Of a stretch of 64,000 bases of DNA, positions 5,742-14,875 are shown piece after piece. Below the pieces are notes generated by a model. It searched no databases. It was not told the origin of the DNA and worked only from the letters and a program-made list of their open reading frames with translations. This DNA comes from Escherichia phage SP15. Numbering within the stretch: position 1 is the stretch's first letter; every line of letters begins with the position of its first letter. The DNA lies in sequence record AP019559. One strand, given 5' to 3'. A program made the position numbers and the translations under genes.

Positions 5742-7616
5742 ATGAATCGCAATGAAGAACTGAAGTATAAAGAAATGCAGGCGTTAATTAGAAACTGCAA
5801 AGAGATTATCGAAGGGTCAGCAGATGAAGAGCTGCTGTTTAATAATGCCAATAAACCCTCAGAACGTTTCCCTACACAAAGGGATATGCTTGCAGGTGAG
5901 TTGAGTAAGTATCTAATTCTAGAAGAAATGCCAATTCAGATTCGAAATGCTCATATGATTGGGGATATTCATTTCCATGATGCTGATTATGCTGCATTAG
6001 GCATGACTAACTGTTGCCTGGTAGCTCTGGAAGATATGTTGAAGAATGGTATGAAGGTTGGTAATGCTGAAATTAGCACTCCAAACTCTATCACTACTGC
6101 GGCGGCTATCACTGCTCAGATTATCACTCAAGTTAGCTCCCATCAGTATGGCGGTACTTCTGTAGATCGCCTTGATGAAGTATTAGCCCCTTATGTTCGT
6201 AAATCCTATGACAAAAATCATGCGTTTGCAAAACGTTGGACTAAGGATGAAGCCAAAGCATCCGTAATGGCTACGGAGATGACTGAAAAAGAAGTCTATG
6301 ATGCTTGTCAGGGTCTAGAGTATGAAATCAATACGATGTTCAACTCTAATGGTCAGAGTCCGTTTATTACCTTTGGCTTTGGTCTGGGAACTTCTTGGGA
6401 GGCACGTCTAGTACAGAAAGCAATACTGAAAGTACGTATGGATGGTTTAGGTATCAATAAACGTACAGCTATCTTCCCGAAACTGGTATTTGTGCTTCGT
6501 GATGGCGTAAATATGAAACCAGGAGATGTTAATTATGACATCAAGAAGTTAGCTATGAAATGTACTGCTGAACGTATGTATCCAGATTATATCAGCTATG
6601 ACAAAGTTGTAGAAGTTACTGGAGACTACAAAGTTTCTATGGGCTGCCGTTCATTCCTAGCTGCTACAGAAGATGGTGAAACTGCCGGTCGTAATAACTT
6701 AGGTGTTGTTTCTGTAAACTTGCCTAGAATTGCTATCGAAGCTGAAGGAAATATTGACCTATTCTTTGATTTGCTTGAGCTACGTGTGGATACAGCGTTA
6801 AAAGCATTGGAGTGGAGAGTTGATCGCTTAAAATACATTCAAGCTAAAGCTGCGCCCATCCTCTATATGTCAGGAGCCTTTGGACTGCGCTTGGAGCCTG
6901 ATGAATATGTATTCGATCATTTCTATAACCGTGCTTCTGTATCTCTAGGGTATATTGGTTGCCATGAAATGCTACAGTTCATGTTTGGCAAAGATGTAGA
7001 CACAATGTCCGAGACCTGCATCAAGTTTGTTCAGCGTGTATTGCAGTACATGCGGGATAGAGTAGATCAGAAGAAGGAAGAAACTAAGTTAGGTTATAGC
7101 CTGTATGCTACACCATCAGAGTCCCTGTGTGACCGTTTTTGTCGTCTAGACCGTGAATATTTCCCGGAGCATGAAGATATTCTGTCCAAAGGATACTACA
7201 CTAACTCTCACCACCTTGATGTGGAACGTAAAGTTGCTCCTAACGTCAAATTTGATTATGAGTCTAACTTTACTCCTATTGCTTCTGGTGGGTGCATCTC
7301 CTATGTAGAATTACCGGATATGAAACGATTCCCAGATGCACTGGAATGGGTTATTAATTATGCTGCTAGTAAGGTTCATTACTTCGGTATTAATACTCCA
7401 GTGGATTCTTGTGGTAAATGTGGATTCTTAGGTGAAACAATAGCATCCGAAGATGGATTTAAGTGCCCTATCTGTGGTAATCATGACCCCGAAACTCTTG
7501 AAGTAACTCGCCGAGTTTGTGGGTATCTTGGAAATCCAGGTGCTCGTCCATTTAACCCCGGCAAACAGCACGAGGTGATGGGTAGAGTTAAGCATCAGGA
7601 TATTCGAGCTAAGTAA
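5742..7616 (+). CDS. nrdD: Anaerobic ribonucleoside-triphosphate reductase (class III)
   Basis: 624 aa; C-terminal zinc ribbon CGKCGF...CPICG and glycyl-radical motif RVCGYLG. Confidence 0.85.
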   Translation: MNRNEELKYKEMQALIRNCKEIIEGSADEELLFNNANKPSERFPTQRDMLAGELSKYLILEEMPIQIRNAHMIGDIHFHDADYAALGMTNCCLVALEDMLKNGMKVGNAEISTPNSITTAAAITAQIITQVSSHQYGGTSVDRLDEVLAPYVRKSYDKNHAFAKRWTKDEAKASVMATEMTEKEVYDACQGLEYEINTMFNSNGQSPFITFGFGLGTSWEARLVQKAILKVRMDGLGINKRTAIFPKLVFVLRDGVNMKPGDVNYDIKKLAMKCTAERMYPDYISYDKVVEVTGDYKVSMGCRSFLAATEDGETAGRNNLGVVSVNLPRIAIEAEGNIDLFFDLLELRVDTALKALEWRVDRLKYIQAKAAPILYMSGAFGLRLEPDEYVFDHFYNRASVSLGYIGCHEMLQFMFGKDVDTMSETCIKFVQRVLQYMRDRVDQKKEETKLGYSLYATPSESLCDRFCRLDREYFPEHEDILSKGYYTNSHHLDVERKVAPNVKFDYESNFTPIASGGCISYVELPDMKRFPDALEWVINYAASKVHYFGINTPVDSCGKCGFLGETIASEDGFKCPICGNHDPETLEVTRRVCGYLGNPGARPFNPGKQHEVMGRVKHQDIRAK

Positions 7617-7621
7617 GATAA

Positions 7622-7660
7622 TCAGCCGGGTTGCTAGTCGACCTGGCTTTTATTTTATTT
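7622..7660 (+). terminator. Probable rho-independent terminator after nrdD
   Basis: Imperfect hairpin AGCCGG...CTGGCT followed by TTTTATTTTATTT. Confidence 0.4.
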
Positions 7661-7687
7661 GCTTTCAGCCAAAAATTTATATATAAT
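7659..7687 (+). promoter_or_regulatory. T5-type early promoter (TTGCTT, 17 nt, TATAAT) with conserved ATAAATTTGAGAGGAG leader
   Basis: Member of a reiterated promoter cassette; see findings. Confidence 0.6.
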
Positions 7688-7715
7688 AGATTTATAAATT
7701 TGAGAGGAGAAAGAT

Positions 7716-8096
7716 ATGGAATTAAAGCCCTATATAGTTGAGTCTACGTGTGGTAGTTTCCATCTGGGCGTGGATGATATTGCTGAAGCTGTCTTTGCTG
7801 CCACAGGTGATTACTCGCATATAGAGGGTGTTGCATACCCTACCATTATTGGCGATTGGGTGGGAACAAATCTAGATGTATCGCCTTATAACCCATATTG
7901 CTTGTTTGATGAAGACAGAGATGAAGTAAAATGTAATCTTGAATTTGTGTATAATAGAGTGTTAAAAGTATACCAACGTAGCCCCAATGGATACGAAGAT
8001 ATTACTTGGAGTATTAAACAGTATCTTAAAGATGTATACTCTAGTTTTTCTGACGAAGACCTAGAAACAGTTGCAGTGGAGTTTAATAATGACTAA
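7716..8096 (+). CDS. Hypothetical acidic protein
   Basis: 126-aa ORF with RBS GAGGAG downstream of promoter; no motif recognised. Confidence 0.5.
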   Translation: MELKPYIVESTCGSFHLGVDDIAEAVFAATGDYSHIEGVAYPTIIGDWVGTNLDVSPYNPYCLFDEDRDEVKCNLEFVYNRVLKVYQRSPNGYEDITWSIKQYLKDVYSSFSDEDLETVAVEFNND

Positions 8097-8295
8097 GAAT
8101 GTAAAACATCTTAAATATCGCTTAATTTATAACGGACGTATGGAAACAGAAGATCTGGCCCAGTTAGCTATTAATTCTAATGAGGTTACAGTGCGTGCGC
8201 TGGCAATTGAAAAGTTGCGTGCCTCTTATGAAAATCGTGTTATGGAACTAGAGGAGAAACTTTATGGCATTCTCGAAGCCGATGCTACCAGATAA
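8089..8295 (+). CDS. Hypothetical protein
   Basis: Small ORF whose ATG overlaps the upstream stop; coding-like composition. Confidence 0.4.
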   Translation: MTKNVKHLKYRLIYNGRMETEDLAQLAINSNEVTVRALAIEKLRASYENRVMELEEKLYGILEADATR

Positions 8296-8485
8296 GGGTT
8301 TAAACGCCGCTTTGGAAAACGCATTAATGCAGCACTGGGAAACTGGCTATAAGGATGGTGTTGAATCCTGCGCTACTATGCTAGAAGTTATTGCTAATAC
8401 CTTAATGGAGAAAGGCAATAAAGAATTAGCTGAGCTATTAGACAGTATTGGGCAAAACTTCAGAGAACAGGTGAAAAATGCGTAG
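8264..8485 (+). CDS. Hypothetical protein
   Basis: 73-aa ORF; stop overlaps start of Sir2-like gene (ATGCGTAG). Confidence 0.4.
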   Translation: MAFSKPMLPDKGLNAALENALMQHWETGYKDGVESCATMLEVIANTLMEKGNKELAELLDSIGQNFREQVKNA

Positions 8486-9296
8486 ATTAATTATTATTAG
8501 CGGTGCAGGTTTGAGTGTTGAAAGTGGTGTACGAGCTTTTCGTACTGATACTGCTAGTGGTAAAGCATTGTGGGATGATTATGATCTAGAAGAAGTATGT
8601 AATATTCATGCCTTTCGTGGTAATTTTTATCATAAAACCCATATGTTTTACAACAAGCGTCGTGAAGAGCTAAAAACTGTTGAACCTAATCTTGCTCATT
8701 TGCGTATTGGTGAGTGGTATAAACAATATCCAGGTCAAGTAGTAAACTTGACTACCAACGTTGATGACCTTATTGAGCGTGCTGGCGTTCCACATAGTGA
8801 CATTCTGCACATTCATGGGTACTTAAAAGAGGTTGTTGTGGCTGATAGTCACAATAGTAGTAATAAACGAGTTATTGATGTAGGATACAATTCTATTGAT
8901 CCAGATGACTATAAATGGGTTAAACCTAATGTAATCTTCTTTGGGGAGCATGCTCCAGCATATGCAGAAATGTACAATATTTTTGATGGTATTACCAATC
9001 AAGATATGATCATTGTGGTTGGTTGCTCTAACCAAGTAATTAACTTCTACTGGGAATTATTTCCTATTCTTAACCGTACTGCTGCCAAGCTAATGGTAGT
9101 TAACTACTATGATAGTGCCCTAGCGGCAGAACCAGGCTATCAAGGTATGACTCGTAGTGAGATGTACCAGCTGGAAGAACGCGGTATCCCTTACTGGAGT
9201 AAAGGGGCTGTAGATGCCTTCAGTGATCCTGATTTTATTGCTCGTGTAGAAGCTCATCTAGAGGGTAGACCTTATGTGTCAGGAAGTAAGAAATAA
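8478..9296 (+). CDS. Sir2-family (sirtuin/CobB-like) NAD-dependent enzyme lacking the zinc-ribbon cysteines
   Basis: Sirtuin motifs GAGLSVESGVRAFR, NLAH, TTNVDDLIERAG, ILHIHG; no CxxC...CxxC module between the catalytic His and the C-terminal Rossmann half. Confidence 0.75.
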   Translation: MRRLIIISGAGLSVESGVRAFRTDTASGKALWDDYDLEEVCNIHAFRGNFYHKTHMFYNKRREELKTVEPNLAHLRIGEWYKQYPGQVVNLTTNVDDLIERAGVPHSDILHIHGYLKEVVVADSHNSSNKRVIDVGYNSIDPDDYKWVKPNVIFFGEHAPAYAEMYNIFDGITNQDMIIVVGCSNQVINFYWELFPILNRTAAKLMVVNYYDSALAAEPGYQGMTRSEMYQLEERGIPYWSKGAVDAFSDPDFIARVEAHLEGRPYVSGSKK

Positions 9297-9459
9297 TGAA
9301 TGGGATATTTTCATAACTGAGTCTGGTACTTGGTGCTATAGATTTGCCTATAGGTTTCCTAGTGTAAGAAAACGGCTGGGGTACACATATAAAATTATCT
9401 ACACTACAGATAATATATGGTTGTCCTCTGGAGATGAGGGGAAACAGATATGTCCATAG
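9274..9459 (+). CDS. Hypothetical small protein (WCYR-motif paralog A)
   Basis: 61-aa ORF sharing DIF...G(T/S)WCYR motif with next ORF. Confidence 0.4.
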   Translation: MCQEVRNNEWDIFITESGTWCYRFAYRFPSVRKRLGYTYKIIYTTDNIWLSSGDEGKQICP

Positions 9460-9632
9460 TTAAATCTGTGTATACACATCCCGATGATATATTTGTATGG
9501 GCGGATGGTAGTTGGTGCTATCGATGTGAGCTATGGGAAATGGACTATAAATCTGATGACTATGGTGTCATATATGTTGATACGGTTGAGTATGATACGT
9601 TCTTAGAAAGGGACAAAAATGGAAATAAGTAA
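9450..9632 (+). CDS. Hypothetical small protein (WCYR-motif paralog B)
   Basis: 60-aa ORF, tandem paralog of previous. Confidence 0.4.
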   Translation: MSIVKSVYTHPDDIFVWADGSWCYRCELWEMDYKSDDYGVIYVDTVEYDTFLERDKNGNK

Positions 9633-10125
9633 TACTCCAATTATTTTTCTAGACATTGATGGGGTGCTTAATTCGAGCATCTCCCACCATCATGCACCTG
9701 ATGATGAAAAGATTTTCTTTGGAAGTGACTGGGTTTTTAAGCCACTTCTCAAGGCTTTTCAGGACTTTATTCGTCCTTCTCCAATAATGATTGTTGGGGT
9801 ATCTTCATGGTTCTCTGTCAGGAATGAGATGGAGAACGTTCAGATTATGACCGGATTAGATCTTATCGATCGTTTTCTTGGTACAACGGATTTTACTGGT
9901 GGTGGGCTATCTAGGGGTAATTCTGTTCTTCGCTTCGTTGAAAAGCATAAGCTCAAACATTGGTGTGTGCTGGATGACGCTGGTGCTATGATGTATCAGT
10001 ATCCAACTGTTATAGTCAATGGTAGAATTGGAATAAATCTTCAAGATTTAAGAGCTGTTAGCTATATGTTAGAATTTAGTCCAGATCTTGAAATGTGTAA
10101 AGCCCTACAACAATTTAAGGTGTAA
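9619..10125 (+). CDS. HAD-superfamily hydrolase/phosphatase-like protein
   Basis: Motif I FLDIDGVLN (DxDxV) and downstream VLDDAG. Confidence 0.55.
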   Translation: MEISNTPIIFLDIDGVLNSSISHHHAPDDEKIFFGSDWVFKPLLKAFQDFIRPSPIMIVGVSSWFSVRNEMENVQIMTGLDLIDRFLGTTDFTGGGLSRGNSVLRFVEKHKLKHWCVLDDAGAMMYQYPTVIVNGRIGINLQDLRAVSYMLEFSPDLEMCKALQQFKV

Positions 10126-10127
10126 AT

Positions 10128-10556
10128 ATGTTCAATAATGTGTTCTCTAAAGAAGCTAACCCAATATTAGTTAATTTTTGGCGTACTCTTCCAGCCAACC
10201 TGTACAATGAGGCTATTAATGCTCTGAAAATATGGTGTGAGAATAATGAAATCTCCTTTGCTTTTAAAGGCGAGGTTGAAGAGGCTCCCTGTATTGGTTT
10301 AATTGTGCAGGTGGAGGATGGTCTTGAAGAGATTGTCGGCTGGAAAGAGTTGGATGAAATGGGCTTGGTTTTTGCGTTAAACTATAAGCTGTTTATGCCC
10401 AATAAACACCGTATTGTTGTTAACTATAAAACCAATGAATCTCCTGGTTTTCAAGTTAATGAACGGTATGGTTGGTCTTACTCACCGGAAGAGGTAAATG
10501 ATGGTATCCAGAAACTTCGTCGTTTTGGTTATCAAATTCCGGGTTTAACTGCCTAA
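10128..10556 (+). CDS. Hypothetical protein (tandem paralog 1)
   Basis: 142 aa; shares PCIG, MGL(V/I)xALN, xIPGL with the next ORF. Confidence 0.5.
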   Translation: MFNNVFSKEANPILVNFWRTLPANLYNEAINALKIWCENNEISFAFKGEVEEAPCIGLIVQVEDGLEEIVGWKELDEMGLVFALNYKLFMPNKHRIVVNYKTNESPGFQVNERYGWSYSPEEVNDGIQKLRRFGYQIPGLTA

Positions 10557-10565
10557 GGAGGCACA

Positions 10566-10958
10566 ATGGAACAAGTATATTGGCGTCAGATCGACCCTAG
10601 TTTGGTGAAGCGTGCAGAGAAGCTGCTACAACGTTGGTTGGGGGTAAGACAAGCCTCCTTCACTTTTCCGGAGCAGCAAATAGACGATCCCTGTATTGGT
10701 GTTTTCCTATCAGGCTACGCTAGGGAATGGGAATTGGATTGGAATGAATTGTCTGCTATGGGTTTAATTGTTGCACTAAATTTCTCTTTGTTCCATCCAC
10801 GTGGTTTGGCCATATGTCGTGTGCCTGAGGACGGTTGTTCGCCCCATCTTTTACAGGTGGAAGATGATATTTGGGAGTACACTCCAGATATTCTCAAAGA
10901 AGCCAAAGAACAATTAAACCGTGTTGGAATTTATATTCCAGGCCTGAATGATGAATGA
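10566..10958 (+). CDS. Hypothetical protein (tandem paralog 2)
   Basis: 130 aa; paralog of 10128-10556; strong RBS TAAGGAGG. Confidence 0.5.
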   Translation: MEQVYWRQIDPSLVKRAEKLLQRWLGVRQASFTFPEQQIDDPCIGVFLSGYAREWELDWNELSAMGLIVALNFSLFHPRGLAICRVPEDGCSPHLLQVEDDIWEYTPDILKEAKEQLNRVGIYIPGLNDE

Positions 10959-11097
10959 TTTTTATTGGTTGACCTCTATAATCCGGGCTATTAGTGCTCG
11001 GATTATTGCCTAATCTTTCCAGCTAATTGACAGCATGAATAAATTGTCATTGACAAATTGAATAGATTATGTAATAATATGTGTATTGGAGGTAAAG

Positions 11098-11550
11098 ATG
11101 TCGCTCACACAACAAGAACTTTTAGATAATTTCCGATATGAAGATGGAAAATTATTTAGAACCACAGGAAGAAATGCAGGCAAGGAATGTTGTGTTTCAA
11201 CGGGAAATGGGTATTATCGTATTTCTCTAGGTAGTAAAACTATGCTCCGACACAGAGCCATCTTCTTAATGCATCATGGTTATCTCCCTGATTTAGTAGA
11301 TCATGAGAATACTATAAAAGGTGATGATCGTATTGAAAATCTTAGAGAGCAGACAGTATCCGGTAATCTAAGAAATATCAAATATAAGAAAGGAATGCAT
11401 GTTTACCCTTCTGGTAGTAAGAACTGGCAAGTAGTATTTACTATTAACCGTAAACGTATAGTTAAAGGAACATATGACAACTATGAGGTTGCATGTTCTA
11501 TGGCCAAGATGTTTAGAGGTCAATTATACGGTAGGGAATCAATCCAGTAA
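11098..11550 (+). CDS. HNH homing endonuclease (HNH_3 type)
   Basis: Motif LVDHENTIKGDDRIENLRE; start at ATG preceded by GGAGG; free-standing in an intergenic position. Confidence 0.7.
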   Translation: MSLTQQELLDNFRYEDGKLFRTTGRNAGKECCVSTGNGYYRISLGSKTMLRHRAIFLMHHGYLPDLVDHENTIKGDDRIENLREQTVSGNLRNIKYKKGMHVYPSGSKNWQVVFTINRKRIVKGTYDNYEVACSMAKMFRGQLYGRESIQ

Positions 11551-11618
11551 AATTTCATTTGCAAGGGAGTATTATTTTATAGTATAATATTCCCATAAAT
11601 GAGAGATATTAGTAAAAA

Positions 11619-11648
11619 TTGATTTTGCTAATTTTTCTTGTTTACAAT
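11619..11648 (+). promoter_or_regulatory. Candidate sigma70 promoter (TTGATT, 18 nt, TACAAT)
   Basis: Lies upstream of the long GC-rich leader preceding the helicase gene. Confidence 0.35.
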
Positions 11649-12085
11649 CCGCGATACGGAACAGTTAGGCTGCCCCATTAAGGGTTGTTTTAACTGTTAC
11701 GTGTTAGTTTTTAAGCAAATAATTAATAGAATACTTAGCGATCTGCGTCCCGTAGGAACCCTGGTAAGGCCTCGAAGCAACCTAGATAGAGGTGGTTGTG
11801 AAGTGAGACGGGAGGAGTGAAAAACTCCGAGACGTGATTCTGTAAGTTATATTGCATCTAGTATGAGCTAGTATATGAAGCATTAGGTGAGCAAATCTGG
11901 CTTAGCGGCCATCCTCAAGGATTTGTGCGGTATAGCAAAGCAGCAGCGCAGCGTGAAAGTGGAAGTTGCCACCCCACTTCAGTATTTGCGATTAATTTGT
12001 TGAGAAATTGACAGTAACAGTTGTTCTATTCTTTCTGAATAGTCCTAAAGAAAACTTATTTCATTTCCAACACAGGAGTATTGTT

Positions 12086-14875
12086 GTGTTTTCAATCCTA
12101 CAAGGTCATGCAGGATTTCATCGCGATTTAGCCACAGGCAATTGGCGAGAAGTTAAGGCAGAAGATTATCTTTTTGCTAAAAGATTTTCCTCAAAGCATC
12201 CCGAAGGTAAACCAGCTTCAATGCCCTTCAAGTTTGATGTAATTGATGAAGTTGATCCTCAAACCCTAGTAGAAATGCTTCCTCTTATGAGACGTTTAAC
12301 GTCTGACCCTCATATCGTTGCGGTACGAGGTCGATGTCTTGCACCTAAAAATAATGTGCGACGTAAGAAGGGCAACTTTAATGTATCTAATCCAAGTCAT
12401 ATAATCGCAATGGATGTGGATGGTATTGTAGATACAGGAGGTTGTAACAAGTTTGATCTTGTTGGCATGGCGCGTCATATTATTAGGATGTTGAATAGTA
12501 TTAGTGAGGATATGTTTCCTCTTGATGCAGGGTTTATTGCTCATGCATCATCTTCGGCTGGCCTAAAACCAGGTATCCGAATGCACTTAATACTAGAATC
12601 TAATGTTAAAGTTACACAGGGTCAGATCAAGTTCTTATTTACATCTATCAACGAAAGTAGTAGACAAAAGTATGGCTTTGATATTGCCGACTTAGCTTAT
12701 TACTCTTCCGTACAGCTCCACTATTTTGCAGATCCTTTATTTACTGATGGTATAGTTGATCCGTTTAAAGCGGAGGGTGCTTCACGTCTGGTATTTGTTA
12801 AAGGCTCAAAAGTAAATTTACCTAATAATCTAGTTGACTATGAAACAACTAGAGGAGAGTTTAAAGAGGAATTCTACTCTTTACTCGATCAAATTAAAGG
12901 TAAAAAAGCCGCCTCCGATAAAGTAGAGGAAACTATCAGCGAACTAGAAGAAGCTGAGGATGGAGTGTATCTACGTATTATTCCTAAACTCTATCACAGG
13001 GCTTTAGAGGATGGTGTTGATTTTGCATGGCTAGAAAAAGAAATCCGCCCAGCCTTATCAGAGTATATTGCAACTAAAGATAATAGTCGTAATATTCAAG
13101 ATTATTTTAACAACGGTAGAAAACAGGCTCTGAAAGCGTTTGTTAATAATTCTAAACGTGATATACCGGATGTTTTAAAAGGTATTCCACTTAAAAAGCT
13201 AGAAACTAACTCTCTAGAGACTGATAACTTCTTGAAATTAAATACTGTACCACCAGAAGGTTATATGACTTTTGTAAAAGCAAGTCTAGGTACAGGTAAA
13301 ACTACGGCGGTTGTGCGTTGGTTAGATTCAGGAGTTATTAAGGGTAATTTCTTAGCAATTACCAATACTCGAGCACTGGTATCTTCAAATGCTAAGAAAT
13401 TTAGTGCAGGACAATATGATAAGTCTGTAGATATGCTTAATTTTAAGCGTGGCGCTATTGACCGTATGTCCACAACTATACATTCTTTGCATAAGTTCAA
13501 GAGTTTTATTGGTCAAATCGATGCAATCTTTATCGATGAATGTGACGCTGTAATGAATGACCTATTATTCGCCCCGGTTGTTAAACAACGTCGTGAATGT
13601 ATTCAGGTTCTTCGGGATATTCTTGCAACTGCAAAAATCATTATATTATCTGATGGTGATATTAGTGCTGAAACAATTGAAGCATATGGTTCTTTGATTG
13701 AGTTTGATAAACCGGTTGCATTTTATAATCATCACCGTAAGATGCTGTCAAAAGCTCATGCTTATGAGTTCCCTGATGAATCTAGTATTTGGGTTGCACT
13801 TCAGACCTCTCTAGAGATGGGTGAGAAATCTATTCTGGTATCTGATTGTGGGCCGGATGAGCTGAATGAGAAAGGTATGGCACTGCGTCGTAATACGGGT
13901 GCGTTAGTTAAGGAAATCCATTCAAACTCTACCTCAGATGTGGATATTAGACGTATTCTGGATTACACAACTAATGAACTAATTGATCAACAAATTGATT
14001 GTTTATTATGTAGTCCATCCGTAACGAGTGGTGTTGACTTTAACTATTTTGATAACGTATTTGTTATTACTAGAACTAGTAATCAAGCGCCAAACATGCG
14101 TTTCCAAGCAATCAGGCGCGACCGTGGTGCTCAGAATATCTATTATTTTATTGATAAATCCACTAGTGGATTCTCCGCAGGTTCTGAACAATATAATATT
14201 GATGAGGGTTGGCTGGAGTTAGCACAGCAATTATACGCACGTCGCAGGGAGCTGGAATCTAGGAACTATACTAGTACTTTACGTTATTACTTACTTGATC
14301 AGGGTGCAACTATTGATATTTTCAGTGAAAGCTGGGGAACTATTGAAGGTGCTGGTAAAGAGTATACAGAAGAGCGAATCAAAGCTATTCTGCACTCAAC
14401 TCCTGATTATTGTGCTCCACGTCATGCGGATGCGTATGAAGCTAAACTACTTCTTGTTCGCTATTATCATCTGGAGTCTATTAAAGATGTAACCGTTGAG
14501 CATGTTGAACAATATATCAAAGATAAGCCGAATGATCGAGCTGCATTCTTCCATAAGATGCATGAGATGTTCTGGGAAGATATTAAGAAGTGTTCAAATG
14601 TCACTATCAAACCTTTCATAGAAGCTCTGAAAGGTAAGAAGAAAGATTTCTTCCTTAAAACAGGTCAGAGTGCTAACCCAAAATATGCTAGAATGTATCT
14701 TGGTATGATGGGTATTGGTAAAGATATGAACACGGAGAATATCGTAGACTGGTACAGAACCTATTGTAAAATCGAGTGTATGCCAATTCCTTTCAAATTC
14801 ATGACAGAGGAAGAACGTCAGATGCACGAGGAAGCAATGTCAGAGCTAGGTGCTAGAAATGACAGTGAAGAATAA
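12086..14875 (+). CDS. Large P-loop NTPase / SF2-type helicase, putative replication initiation (origin-binding) helicase
   Basis: Walker A SLGTGKTT, Walker B FIDECDAV; start placed at GTG preceded by AGGAG (ORF track extends to 12008). Confidence 0.65.
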   Translation: MFSILQGHAGFHRDLATGNWREVKAEDYLFAKRFSSKHPEGKPASMPFKFDVIDEVDPQTLVEMLPLMRRLTSDPHIVAVRGRCLAPKNNVRRKKGNFNVSNPSHIIAMDVDGIVDTGGCNKFDLVGMARHIIRMLNSISEDMFPLDAGFIAHASSSAGLKPGIRMHLILESNVKVTQGQIKFLFTSINESSRQKYGFDIADLAYYSSVQLHYFADPLFTDGIVDPFKAEGASRLVFVKGSKVNLPNNLVDYETTRGEFKEEFYSLLDQIKGKKAASDKVEETISELEEAEDGVYLRIIPKLYHRALEDGVDFAWLEKEIRPALSEYIATKDNSRNIQDYFNNGRKQALKAFVNNSKRDIPDVLKGIPLKKLETNSLETDNFLKLNTVPPEGYMTFVKASLGTGKTTAVVRWLDSGVIKGNFLAITNTRALVSSNAKKFSAGQYDKSVDMLNFKRGAIDRMSTTIHSLHKFKSFIGQIDAIFIDECDAVMNDLLFAPVVKQRRECIQVLRDILATAKIIILSDGDISAETIEAYGSLIEFDKPVAFYNHHRKMLSKAHAYEFPDESSIWVALQTSLEMGEKSILVSDCGPDELNEKGMALRRNTGALVKEIHSNSTSDVDIRRILDYTTNELIDQQIDCLLCSPSVTSGVDFNYFDNVFVITRTSNQAPNMRFQAIRRDRGAQNIYYFIDKSTSGFSAGSEQYNIDEGWLELAQQLYARRRELESRNYTSTLRYYLLDQGATIDIFSESWGTIEGAGKEYTEERIKAILHSTPDYCAPRHADAYEAKLLLVRYYHLESIKDVTVEHVEQYIKDKPNDRAAFFHKMHEMFWEDIKKCSNVTIKPFIEALKGKKKDFFLKTGQSANPKYARMYLGMMGIGKDMNTENIVDWYRTYCKIECMPIPFKFMTEEERQMHEEAMSELGARNDSEE

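Follow-up and report, generated by a model that had tools for sequence, protein, structure and literature searches.

What is the substrate of the small HAD-type phosphatase that Escherichia phage SP15 encodes close to a sirtuin? We followed up this gene, which lies at positions 9619..10125 of a 64,000-nucleotide stretch of sequence record AP019559 (hereafter the window, meaning that whole stretch). The original prediction, made from the sequence alone, had named the product a HAD-type phosphohydrolase and suggested that it might share a pathway of nicotinamide adenine dinucleotide (NAD+) or nucleotide-derived metabolites with the Sir2-like protein, or else be an unrelated nucleotidase. The phosphohydrolase assignment was borne out by a Pfam match, by HAD motifs I-IV and by a model with the HAD fold. 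For the substrate we slightly prefer phosphorylated ADP-ribose (ADPR) over RNA ends, and give this reading a probability of roughly 0.38; by analogy, the enzyme would fill in a HAD fold the role that the proteins Poa1p and Adpp play elsewhere. The gene, its family and its association with a sirtuin were already known as annotation and prediction. What is added here is a sister clade in NARP1-type operons for NAD+ reconstitution, linkage to Sir2 that holds in reversed gene order, lineages that have lost one partner, and a subfamily signature.

The window comes from a T5-like phage, and the 3-kb stretch around the gene matches 442 phage records, with 95.4% DNA identity to T5 and about 94% for the best full-length matches. 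The gene and the catalytic motifs of its product are as follows.

9619..10125, plus strand: HAD_SAK_2-family phosphatase gene, ortholog of T5.105; ATG start, 168 aa.
9646..9672, plus strand: HAD motif I, FLDIDGVLN, residues 10-18, read from the sequence; DxDx(T/V) is D12-I-D14-G-V16.
9802..9813, plus strand: HAD motif II, S62-S63-W64-F65; all four residues are invariant in the alignment of 14 relatives.
9895..9918, plus strand: T-G-G-G loop followed by motif III (R99-G100); G95, G96, R99 and G100 are invariant among the 14 relatives.
9967..9984, plus strand: HAD motif IV, VLDDAG, residues 117-122 (D119 and D120), read from the sequence; invariant.

The protein is 98.8% identical to, and as long as, T5.105 (AAS77151.1, "conserved hypothetical protein"). 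Against relatives with 82-85% identical DNA, the uncorrected ratio of nonsynonymous to synonymous differences (pN/pS) is about 0.1, which marks the reading frame as real and under purifying selection. The protein is called "RNA repair protein" in UniProt and in some GenBank records. In many T5-like GenBank and RefSeq records the gene is instead annotated as a second "Sir2". This is an artefact of phrog_18062, which is labelled "Sir2 (NAD-dependent deacetylase)" while the 92 positions of its profile fall on residues 77-168 of the HAD protein (E=1.7e-57).

Only one Pfam family matched the protein: PF18143 (HAD_SAK_2, "HAD domain in Swiss Army Knife RNA repair proteins"), at E=5.1e-20 and 72.7 bits against a gathering threshold of 27.5. 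The match spans residues 8-143 and covers profile positions 1-138 of 139. No NCBIfam family scored above its cut-off and no PADLOC defence-system model was matched, and searching solved structures by sequence, with the single protein and with a profile, returned nothing significant (best E=0.13, over motif I only). The AlphaFold model, for which 14 homologs were used as input, has a predicted local distance difference test score (pLDDT) of 94.5 and a predicted template modelling score (pTM) of 0.91. It is a minimal Rossmann-like alpha/beta core whose strands follow the HAD order, with a short flap hairpin after strand 1 and no cap insertion. Foldseek comparison of the model with the PDB gave weak matches only (all E>1e-3), mostly to capless HADs including KdsC-type enzymes. 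Magnesium-dependent phosphatase 1 (MDP-1; PDB 1u7o / 2wm8), a eukaryotic enzyme with a different biology, is 15-16% identical to the protein and resembles it at the level of the fold only.

Conservation was assessed at two depths, with an alignment of 14 relatives (36-87% identity) and with an alignment guided by a hidden Markov model (HMM) of about 85 PF18143 members, some 80 of them more distant. D12, D14, S62/S63, R99 and D119/D120 are invariant among the 14 relatives and are kept across the more distant members. The positions common to PF18143 (F-x-D-x-D-x-V-x-N, S-S/T-W, R-G and D-D) are all present in the window protein. FLDIDGVLN and VLDDAG, the two motifs on which the original prediction relied, were thus confirmed at residues 10-18 and 117-122. 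In the model, VLDDAG sits at the end of the strand formed by residues 115-119, and R99 is at the beginning of the helix before this motif IV strand. Knowledge of the HAD superfamily predicts that D12 acts as nucleophile and D14 as general acid/base. Given the intact motifs I-IV, the full-length PF18143 match and the confident capless model, we regard the protein as a predicted active aspartyl-phosphate phosphomonoesterase, with the chemistry taken from superfamily knowledge.

The wider family is large (8518 representatives at E<=1e-3) and its members mostly stand alone, at 150-190 aa; of 1130 relatives, the 120 best have one domain each. Among ten longer family proteins, seven carry two or three HAD_SAK_2 copies. 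Fusions to Sir2, Macro, Nudix or ligase domains were looked for in these ten, and the sole added domain above the Pfam cut-off was Metallophos, in one protein.

The closest relatives outside the T5-like phages point towards NAD+. These proteins (36-43% identity) come from Serratia phage ChuuTotoro (Vequintavirinae) and from unclassified contigs of similar layout, in which the HAD gene heads an operon of a Prs-like and an NAPRTase-like (Nampt-like) gene. In ChuuTotoro the HAD gene is immediately upstream of the Prs-like gene, with a 4 nt overlap. Three metagenomic contigs (L062, L063 and L119) have one or two small open reading frames (ORFs) between the two, and in phages Kashira and ABPH49 the HAD match overlaps an annotated Prs gene. 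The Prs-like protein is about 40% identical to its counterparts in the Felixounavirus and ICP1 groups, whose two-gene operon has been shown to be NARP1 (Adps plus Namat). As the complete ChuuTotoro genome holds no Sir2 of the T5/rV5 type, the conserved partner of the HAD gene in that clade is the NAD+ reconstitution pair. In two further phage contigs a Nampt-like gene lies 1.8-4 kb from the HAD homolog. In a metagenomic phage contig (L027, 9995-11007), a Nampt-like gene is followed, 1.8 kb downstream, by two HAD_SAK_2 genes in tandem. The small ORFs that separate the HAD gene from Sir2 or Adps in relatives match no Pfam family.

A phosphatase in this setting has a precedent. Experiments have shown that accessory genes of NARP1 convert ADPR derivatives to ADPR: the Macro-domain protein Adpp dephosphorylates the ADPR-1''-phosphate that the aRES defence produces (Osterman et al, 2026, preprint, 10.64898/2026.01.28.702374), and RyDEP opens cyclic ADPR signals. 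In NARP1-AP the gene for Adpp, whose yeast counterpart is Poa1p, stands in or next to an operon of the Adps-Namat type (Osterman et al, 2026), as the HAD gene does in the sister clade. Adpp and Poa1p have the Macro fold and the window protein has the HAD fold, so that any relation would be one of analogy, not of homology. The aRES study screened NARP1 neighbours for Macro Pfams only, and a HAD protein would have gone unseen in it (Osterman et al, 2026).

The NARP1-linked and the Sir2-linked clades are sisters, with about 40% identity between them, and they share residues that most of the family lacks: F65, a T/C-G-G-G loop before R99, G122, M125-Y126 and N-G-R-x-G. In the HMM-guided alignment, position 65 is F in these two clades and mostly R or K in distant members. 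R99 occurs family-wide; the GGG loop is almost confined to the T5-like, NARP1-linked, T4-like and L068-type clades. The T4-like group keeps the loop, with F65 also present in Aeromonas phage Aeh1, and a prophage-like group has nearly the whole signature. This signature lies near the active site and is absent from most members linked to RNA ligases, which fits a possible change of substrate in the subfamily relative to the ligase-linked majority. In three loci (L068, L118 and L120) a HAD_SAK_2 gene with the T5 signature, preceded by a gene for a DUF5710 protein, is found at the edge of an apparent mobile element that adjoins a bacterial tagatose/fructose phosphotransferase system operon; L118 has an RNA ligase 3 kb upstream.

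In the window itself, the HAD gene and the Sir2-like gene are parts of one early operon. Nine ORFs over 7716..10958 overlap or lie within 9 nt of the next, and Sir2 and HAD therefore share an operon. Its order is three small ORFs, Sir2, two small paralogous ORFs, HAD and two DUF7415 paralogs. The features around the HAD gene are listed below.

7624..7648, plus strand: terminator-like hairpin after nrdD, the upstream boundary of the operon; found by a consensus scan as a 10 bp stem followed by a T run.
7716..8096, 8071..8295 and 8264..8485, plus strand: three small overlapping ORFs that open the operon upstream of Sir2; overlaps of 8-32 nt, the first being phrog_11748.
8478..9296, plus strand: Sir2-like protein, 272 aa, ortholog of T5.102; PF02146 at E=1.1e-25, phrog_2162.
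9274..9459, plus strand: small ORF, 61 aa, T5.103-like; phrog_5116 at E=6.7e-24, found in only 2/17 related loci.
9450..9632, plus strand: small ORF, 60 aa, T5.104-like; phrog_5116 at E=1.9e-29, found in most T5-like loci; overlaps the HAD start by 14 nt.
10128..10556, plus strand: DUF7415 protein, 142 aa, T5.106-like; PF24187 at E=3.3e-32, starting 2 nt after the HAD stop.
10566..10958, plus strand: DUF7415 protein, 130 aa, T5.107-like, closing the operon; PF24187 at E=1.6e-31.

The HAD gene had been placed directly downstream of the Sir2-like gene. This needs correction, since the two small overlapping ORFs at 9274..9459 and 9450..9632 lie between them; these form a paralogous tandem with a common DIFxxxGxWCYR motif, and T5-like relatives have 0 to 2 such ORFs in this place. 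With only two cysteines (C41 and C183), the Sir2-like protein lacks the Cys4 zinc module of classical sirtuins, while its GAGxSxxSG, TTNVD and HG motifs are kept. The two DUF7415 proteins are paralogs with 32% identity. A DUF7415 homolog (L005, 7302-7526) directly follows rnlA in Aeh1, four genes from the HAD homolog of that phage.

The same arrangement is found in T5, where T5.105 occupies the same slot in the T5.100-T5.107 operon. The T5 record annotates a promoter before T5.100, a terminator after T5.107 and a terminator at the equivalent of the post-nrdD hairpin. In our own promoter and terminator scan the counts were near those expected from shuffled sequence, and only the post-nrdD hairpin agreed with the T5 annotation; no Rfam family was found in 7000..12500. 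Nothing of substance differs between the window and T5 here except that, past the end of the operon, the window carries an additional HNH endonuclease ORF (PF13392, phrog_99; 11086..11550). This ORF lies between the operon and the origin-binding-protein gene, is not at the matching position of T5, and is present in Salmonella phage 8sent1748. Upstream of the operon, the NrdD ORF (5742..7616) encodes 624 aa as compared with 574 aa (1725 nt) in the T5 record, probably through start-codon choice or an N-terminal extension.

How far the pairing with Sir2 extends was examined across phages. By tblastn, HAD was found in 497 phage records and Sir2 in 1009. Sir2 lies within about 1 kb upstream of HAD in 17/17 T5-like loci examined (T5, My1 and 15 others), which span Tequintavirus, a Salmonella-phage group (probably Epseptimavirus) and Myunavirus My1, whose HAD protein is 43% identical to that of the window. 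In locus L022 the two genes overlap directly. Pantoea phage AAS21 and four metagenomic T5-like lineages have the reversed order HAD-x-Sir2, and a linkage that survives such a reversal argues for more than inherited synteny. One bacterial metagenome-assembled genome also has a Sir2 gene 1.6 kb from a distant HAD homolog.

Each gene is also found on its own. One further T5-like locus has a 5'-truncated HAD and no Sir2. HAD is absent from a Klebsiella T5-like phage that retains Sir2, a small ORF and the two DUF7415 genes, and rV5 and 4MG have a related Sir2 in a cluster of RNA ligase 1, kinase and phosphoesterase, again with no HAD. By HMM, Sir2 was found within 10 kb in 0/39 non-T5 viral loci that carry a HAD homolog, T4-like phages included. 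The co-conservation that the original prediction had wanted checked is therefore real across the T5-like phages, with the pair kept in hundreds of their genomes, and is not obligatory. In a group of Salmonella T5-like phages (L019-L021), probably Epseptimavirus, Sir2 is 51-52% identical to that of the window while the adjacent HAD is 89-90% identical, which points to mosaic exchange of the sirtuin allele beside a conserved HAD. In Escherichia phage 4MG (L071, 1-8055) the run Sir2, AAA_33 kinase, RNA ligase 1 and phosphoesterase stands back to back with an operon of Prs-like, 177-aa and Nampt-like genes. The 177-aa protein, which lies between Adps and Namat, was considered as a divergent HAD and rejected (hhalign probability 0.3%; no Pfam match).

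A coupling of this pair is already in print. Iyer et al (2022) (PMC9503650, section 3.7.3) described the neighbourhood of a sirtuin and a HAD termed "Swiss-army-knife-like" in Tequintavirus SP15 and predicted NAD+-dependent RNA repair, proposing that the sirtuin acts like KptA on RNA 2'-phosphates and that the HAD helps resolve RNA phosphate or processes an ADPR>P by-product. The window belongs to their type 3 neighbourhood (SP15), with the same genus and the same pair of a distinct-clade sirtuin and a SAK-like HAD. Theirs is a computational prediction which makes no mention of the HAD in NARP1-type operons, of reversed orders or of lineages that have lost a partner. The suggestion of a coupled NAD or nucleotide metabolite pathway was thus not new, and the sister clade in NARP1-type operons now backs its NAD part independently.

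If phosphorylated ADPR is the substrate, the HAD protein would be a small, capless, Mg2+-dependent phosphomonoesterase that works through an aspartyl-phosphate intermediate, with D12 as nucleophile and D14 as acid/base, and it would be made early in infection from the operon of the zinc-less sirtuin. It would remove the ribose phosphate of NAD+-derived ADPR, either from ADPR-1''-phosphate or from the product of opened ADPR-1'',2''-cyclic phosphate. The product would be plain ADPR, a role otherwise held by Macro-domain Poa1p in yeast and by Adpp in phage NARP1-AP. In T5-like phages the phosphorylated ADPR might come from Sir2, if this acts like KptA on RNA 2'-phosphates, or from host defences that degrade NAD+; in the sister clade the same enzyme would supply ADPR to Adps and Namat. 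Four points lead us to prefer this reading: links between the closest relatives and NAD+ genes recur in several independent arrangements; one such genome (ChuuTotoro) is without Sir2; a signature of its own marks the clade near the active site; and T5 is without the ligase and kinase required for repair. A more ambitious version, which we consider unlikely as a whole, holds that T5.105-type HADs and their NARP1-type sisters are phosphatases of ADPR-1''-phosphate or a related ADPR-phosphate, a non-homologous substitute for Macro Adpp, that reverse a non-canonical breakdown of NAD+, such as that by RES-type defences, or recycle the by-product of the phage's own sirtuin.

Several observations weigh against phosphorylated ADPR as the substrate. 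Capless HADs often act on macromolecular ends, and the neighbours that recur in the wider family are RNA ligase and calcineurin-like phosphoesterase. Neither Adps nor Namat was found in T5 (1-48 kb) or in the window, so that the operon setting of Adpp is found in the sister clade and not in the window phage, and the benefit of making ADPR in T5-like phages is questionable. The Prs-like and Nampt-like pair is a putative Adps and Namat, so named from about 40% identity to Felixounavirus and ICP1-type proteins and from the form of the operon. The NARP1-linked clade is a single lineage, and its adjacency to these genes therefore counts once, as one evolutionary event. Within the TGGG subfamily, T4-like members have no adjacent NAD genes, and a signature-bearing prophage-like lineage lacks NAD genes, with an RNA ligase at a distance of 3 kb. 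A literature search turned up no experimental paper on T5.105 or PF18143, a finding that counts equally against a role at RNA ends.

That role, the first option of Iyer, Burroughs and Aravind, comes close to the preferred reading, and we consider it somewhat unlikely. Here the HAD would act on tRNA or RNA that host anticodon nucleases have cut, taking off a 2'- or 3'-phosphate or aiding the resolution of a 2',3'-cyclic phosphate; a KptA/Tpt1-like Sir2 would strip a 2'-phosphate by means of NAD+, and a ligase would then reseal the RNA. The name of the Pfam family, defined from "Swiss Army Knife RNA repair proteins", and the protein names in UniProt and GenBank both speak for it, as does the publication of the SP15 neighbourhood as an RNA-repair system (Iyer et al, 2022, PMC9503650). 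So does the genomic context of other family members. In Aeh1, rnlA lies 0.7 kb downstream of the HAD homolog, and in L036 an Rnl2-type ligase adjoins it. A triad of Rnl1, Metallophos and AAA_33 kinase lies 2-5 kb from the HAD gene in L031, L043/L044, L062 and L119. In bacterial loci, RNA_ligase and Metallophos rank with the most frequent neighbour families and are the sole functionally suggestive repeats, although the bacterial homologs are all distant (<=35% identity over most of the protein) and their contexts mostly unrelated. The one Metallophos-HAD fusion and the placement of the related rV5 and 4MG Sir2 beside RNA ligase 1, kinase and phosphoesterase point the same way.

The phage at hand fits this picture less well. 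No homolog of Rnl1, Rnl2 or the AAA_33 kinase was found in T5 (1-48 kb) or in the window, and a self-contained RNA repair pathway is thus missing there; the HAD stands alone, unlike the multidomain proteins after which PF18143 is named. A 3'-phosphatase without a kinase and a ligase would leave ends that host RtcB, by its chemistry, cannot join. The closest relatives adjoin Sir2 or NAD+ reconstitution genes and not ligases, and most ligase-linked members are without the F65/TGGG signature. The conceptual model behind the "RNA repair" name is the 3'-phosphatase domain of T4 Pnkp and mammalian PNKP, a capless DxDxT-type HAD that acts on nucleic-acid ends. These domains share the capless fold, which speaks for a role at RNA ends, and are among the weak Foldseek matches; the similarity of the window protein to them (PDB 2ia5 and 1yj5) amounts to template modelling (TM) scores of 0.38-0.41 at E>0.1, with no sequence match and no fused kinase.

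An improbable alternative is a nucleotide-pool phosphatase, acting on (d)NMPs, nicotinamide mononucleotide (NMN) or NADP independently of Sir2 as part of the block of nrdA/B, nrdD, phoH, thy and frd, with the adjacency to Sir2 inherited as synteny. The gene does lie between nrdD and replication genes, and its T4-like homologs adjoin td, nrdA.1, dUTPase and dexA. Distant phage homologs stand in heterogeneous contexts with T4-like replication and nucleotide-metabolism genes, among them NrdD, ThyA, ThyX, DHFR and ribonucleotide reductase (RNR). Sir2 and HAD can each occur alone, and divergent Sir2 alleles have been swapped beside a conserved HAD. The synteny explanation is opposed by the linkage itself, which outlasts order reversal in several divergent lineages, and by the second, independent NAD-related context in NARP1-type operons. 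Known HAD nucleotidases have a cap domain, and the model of this HAD has none. T5 already has a dedicated deoxynucleoside-5'-monophosphatase, dmp (T5.001), with its own DxDGT motif, which also weakens the unrelated nucleotidase of the original prediction. We considered dmp (L073, 124-858) as a paralog of the HAD gene and rejected this, as only a motif I-like stretch (WDLDGT) is shared; dmp has no Pfam match at E<=1e-3.

A protein phosphatase, capless like the SCP1/FCP1 C-terminal domain (CTD) phosphatases and joining a Sir2 deacylase or ADP-ribosyltransferase to remodel host proteins at an early stage of infection, is very improbable: its support is at the level of the fold, there is no specific sequence relation to CTD phosphatases, the NAD+ reconstitution and RNA ligase contexts do not suit it, T5 has a separate Ser/Thr phosphatase (T5.035), and Sir2 lacks the zinc module that protein deacylases typically have.

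Among model phages T5 is a classic, and NAD+ has come to be recognised as central to the conflict of phages with bacterial immunity. Neither of the two leading readings would make this a new kind of gene. Should the HAD prove to heal RNA ends, the long-standing computational prediction of sirtuin-based RNA repair would gain its first biochemical support. If it dephosphorylates ADPR-phosphates, it would add a second enzyme fold for the accessory phosphatase role in NARP1 and would hint at why T5-like phages carry an NAD+-consuming sirtuin; should the more ambitious version also hold, the Sir2-HAD pair of T5 would be a previously unrecognised NAD+/ADPR counter-defence module and not an RNA repair system.

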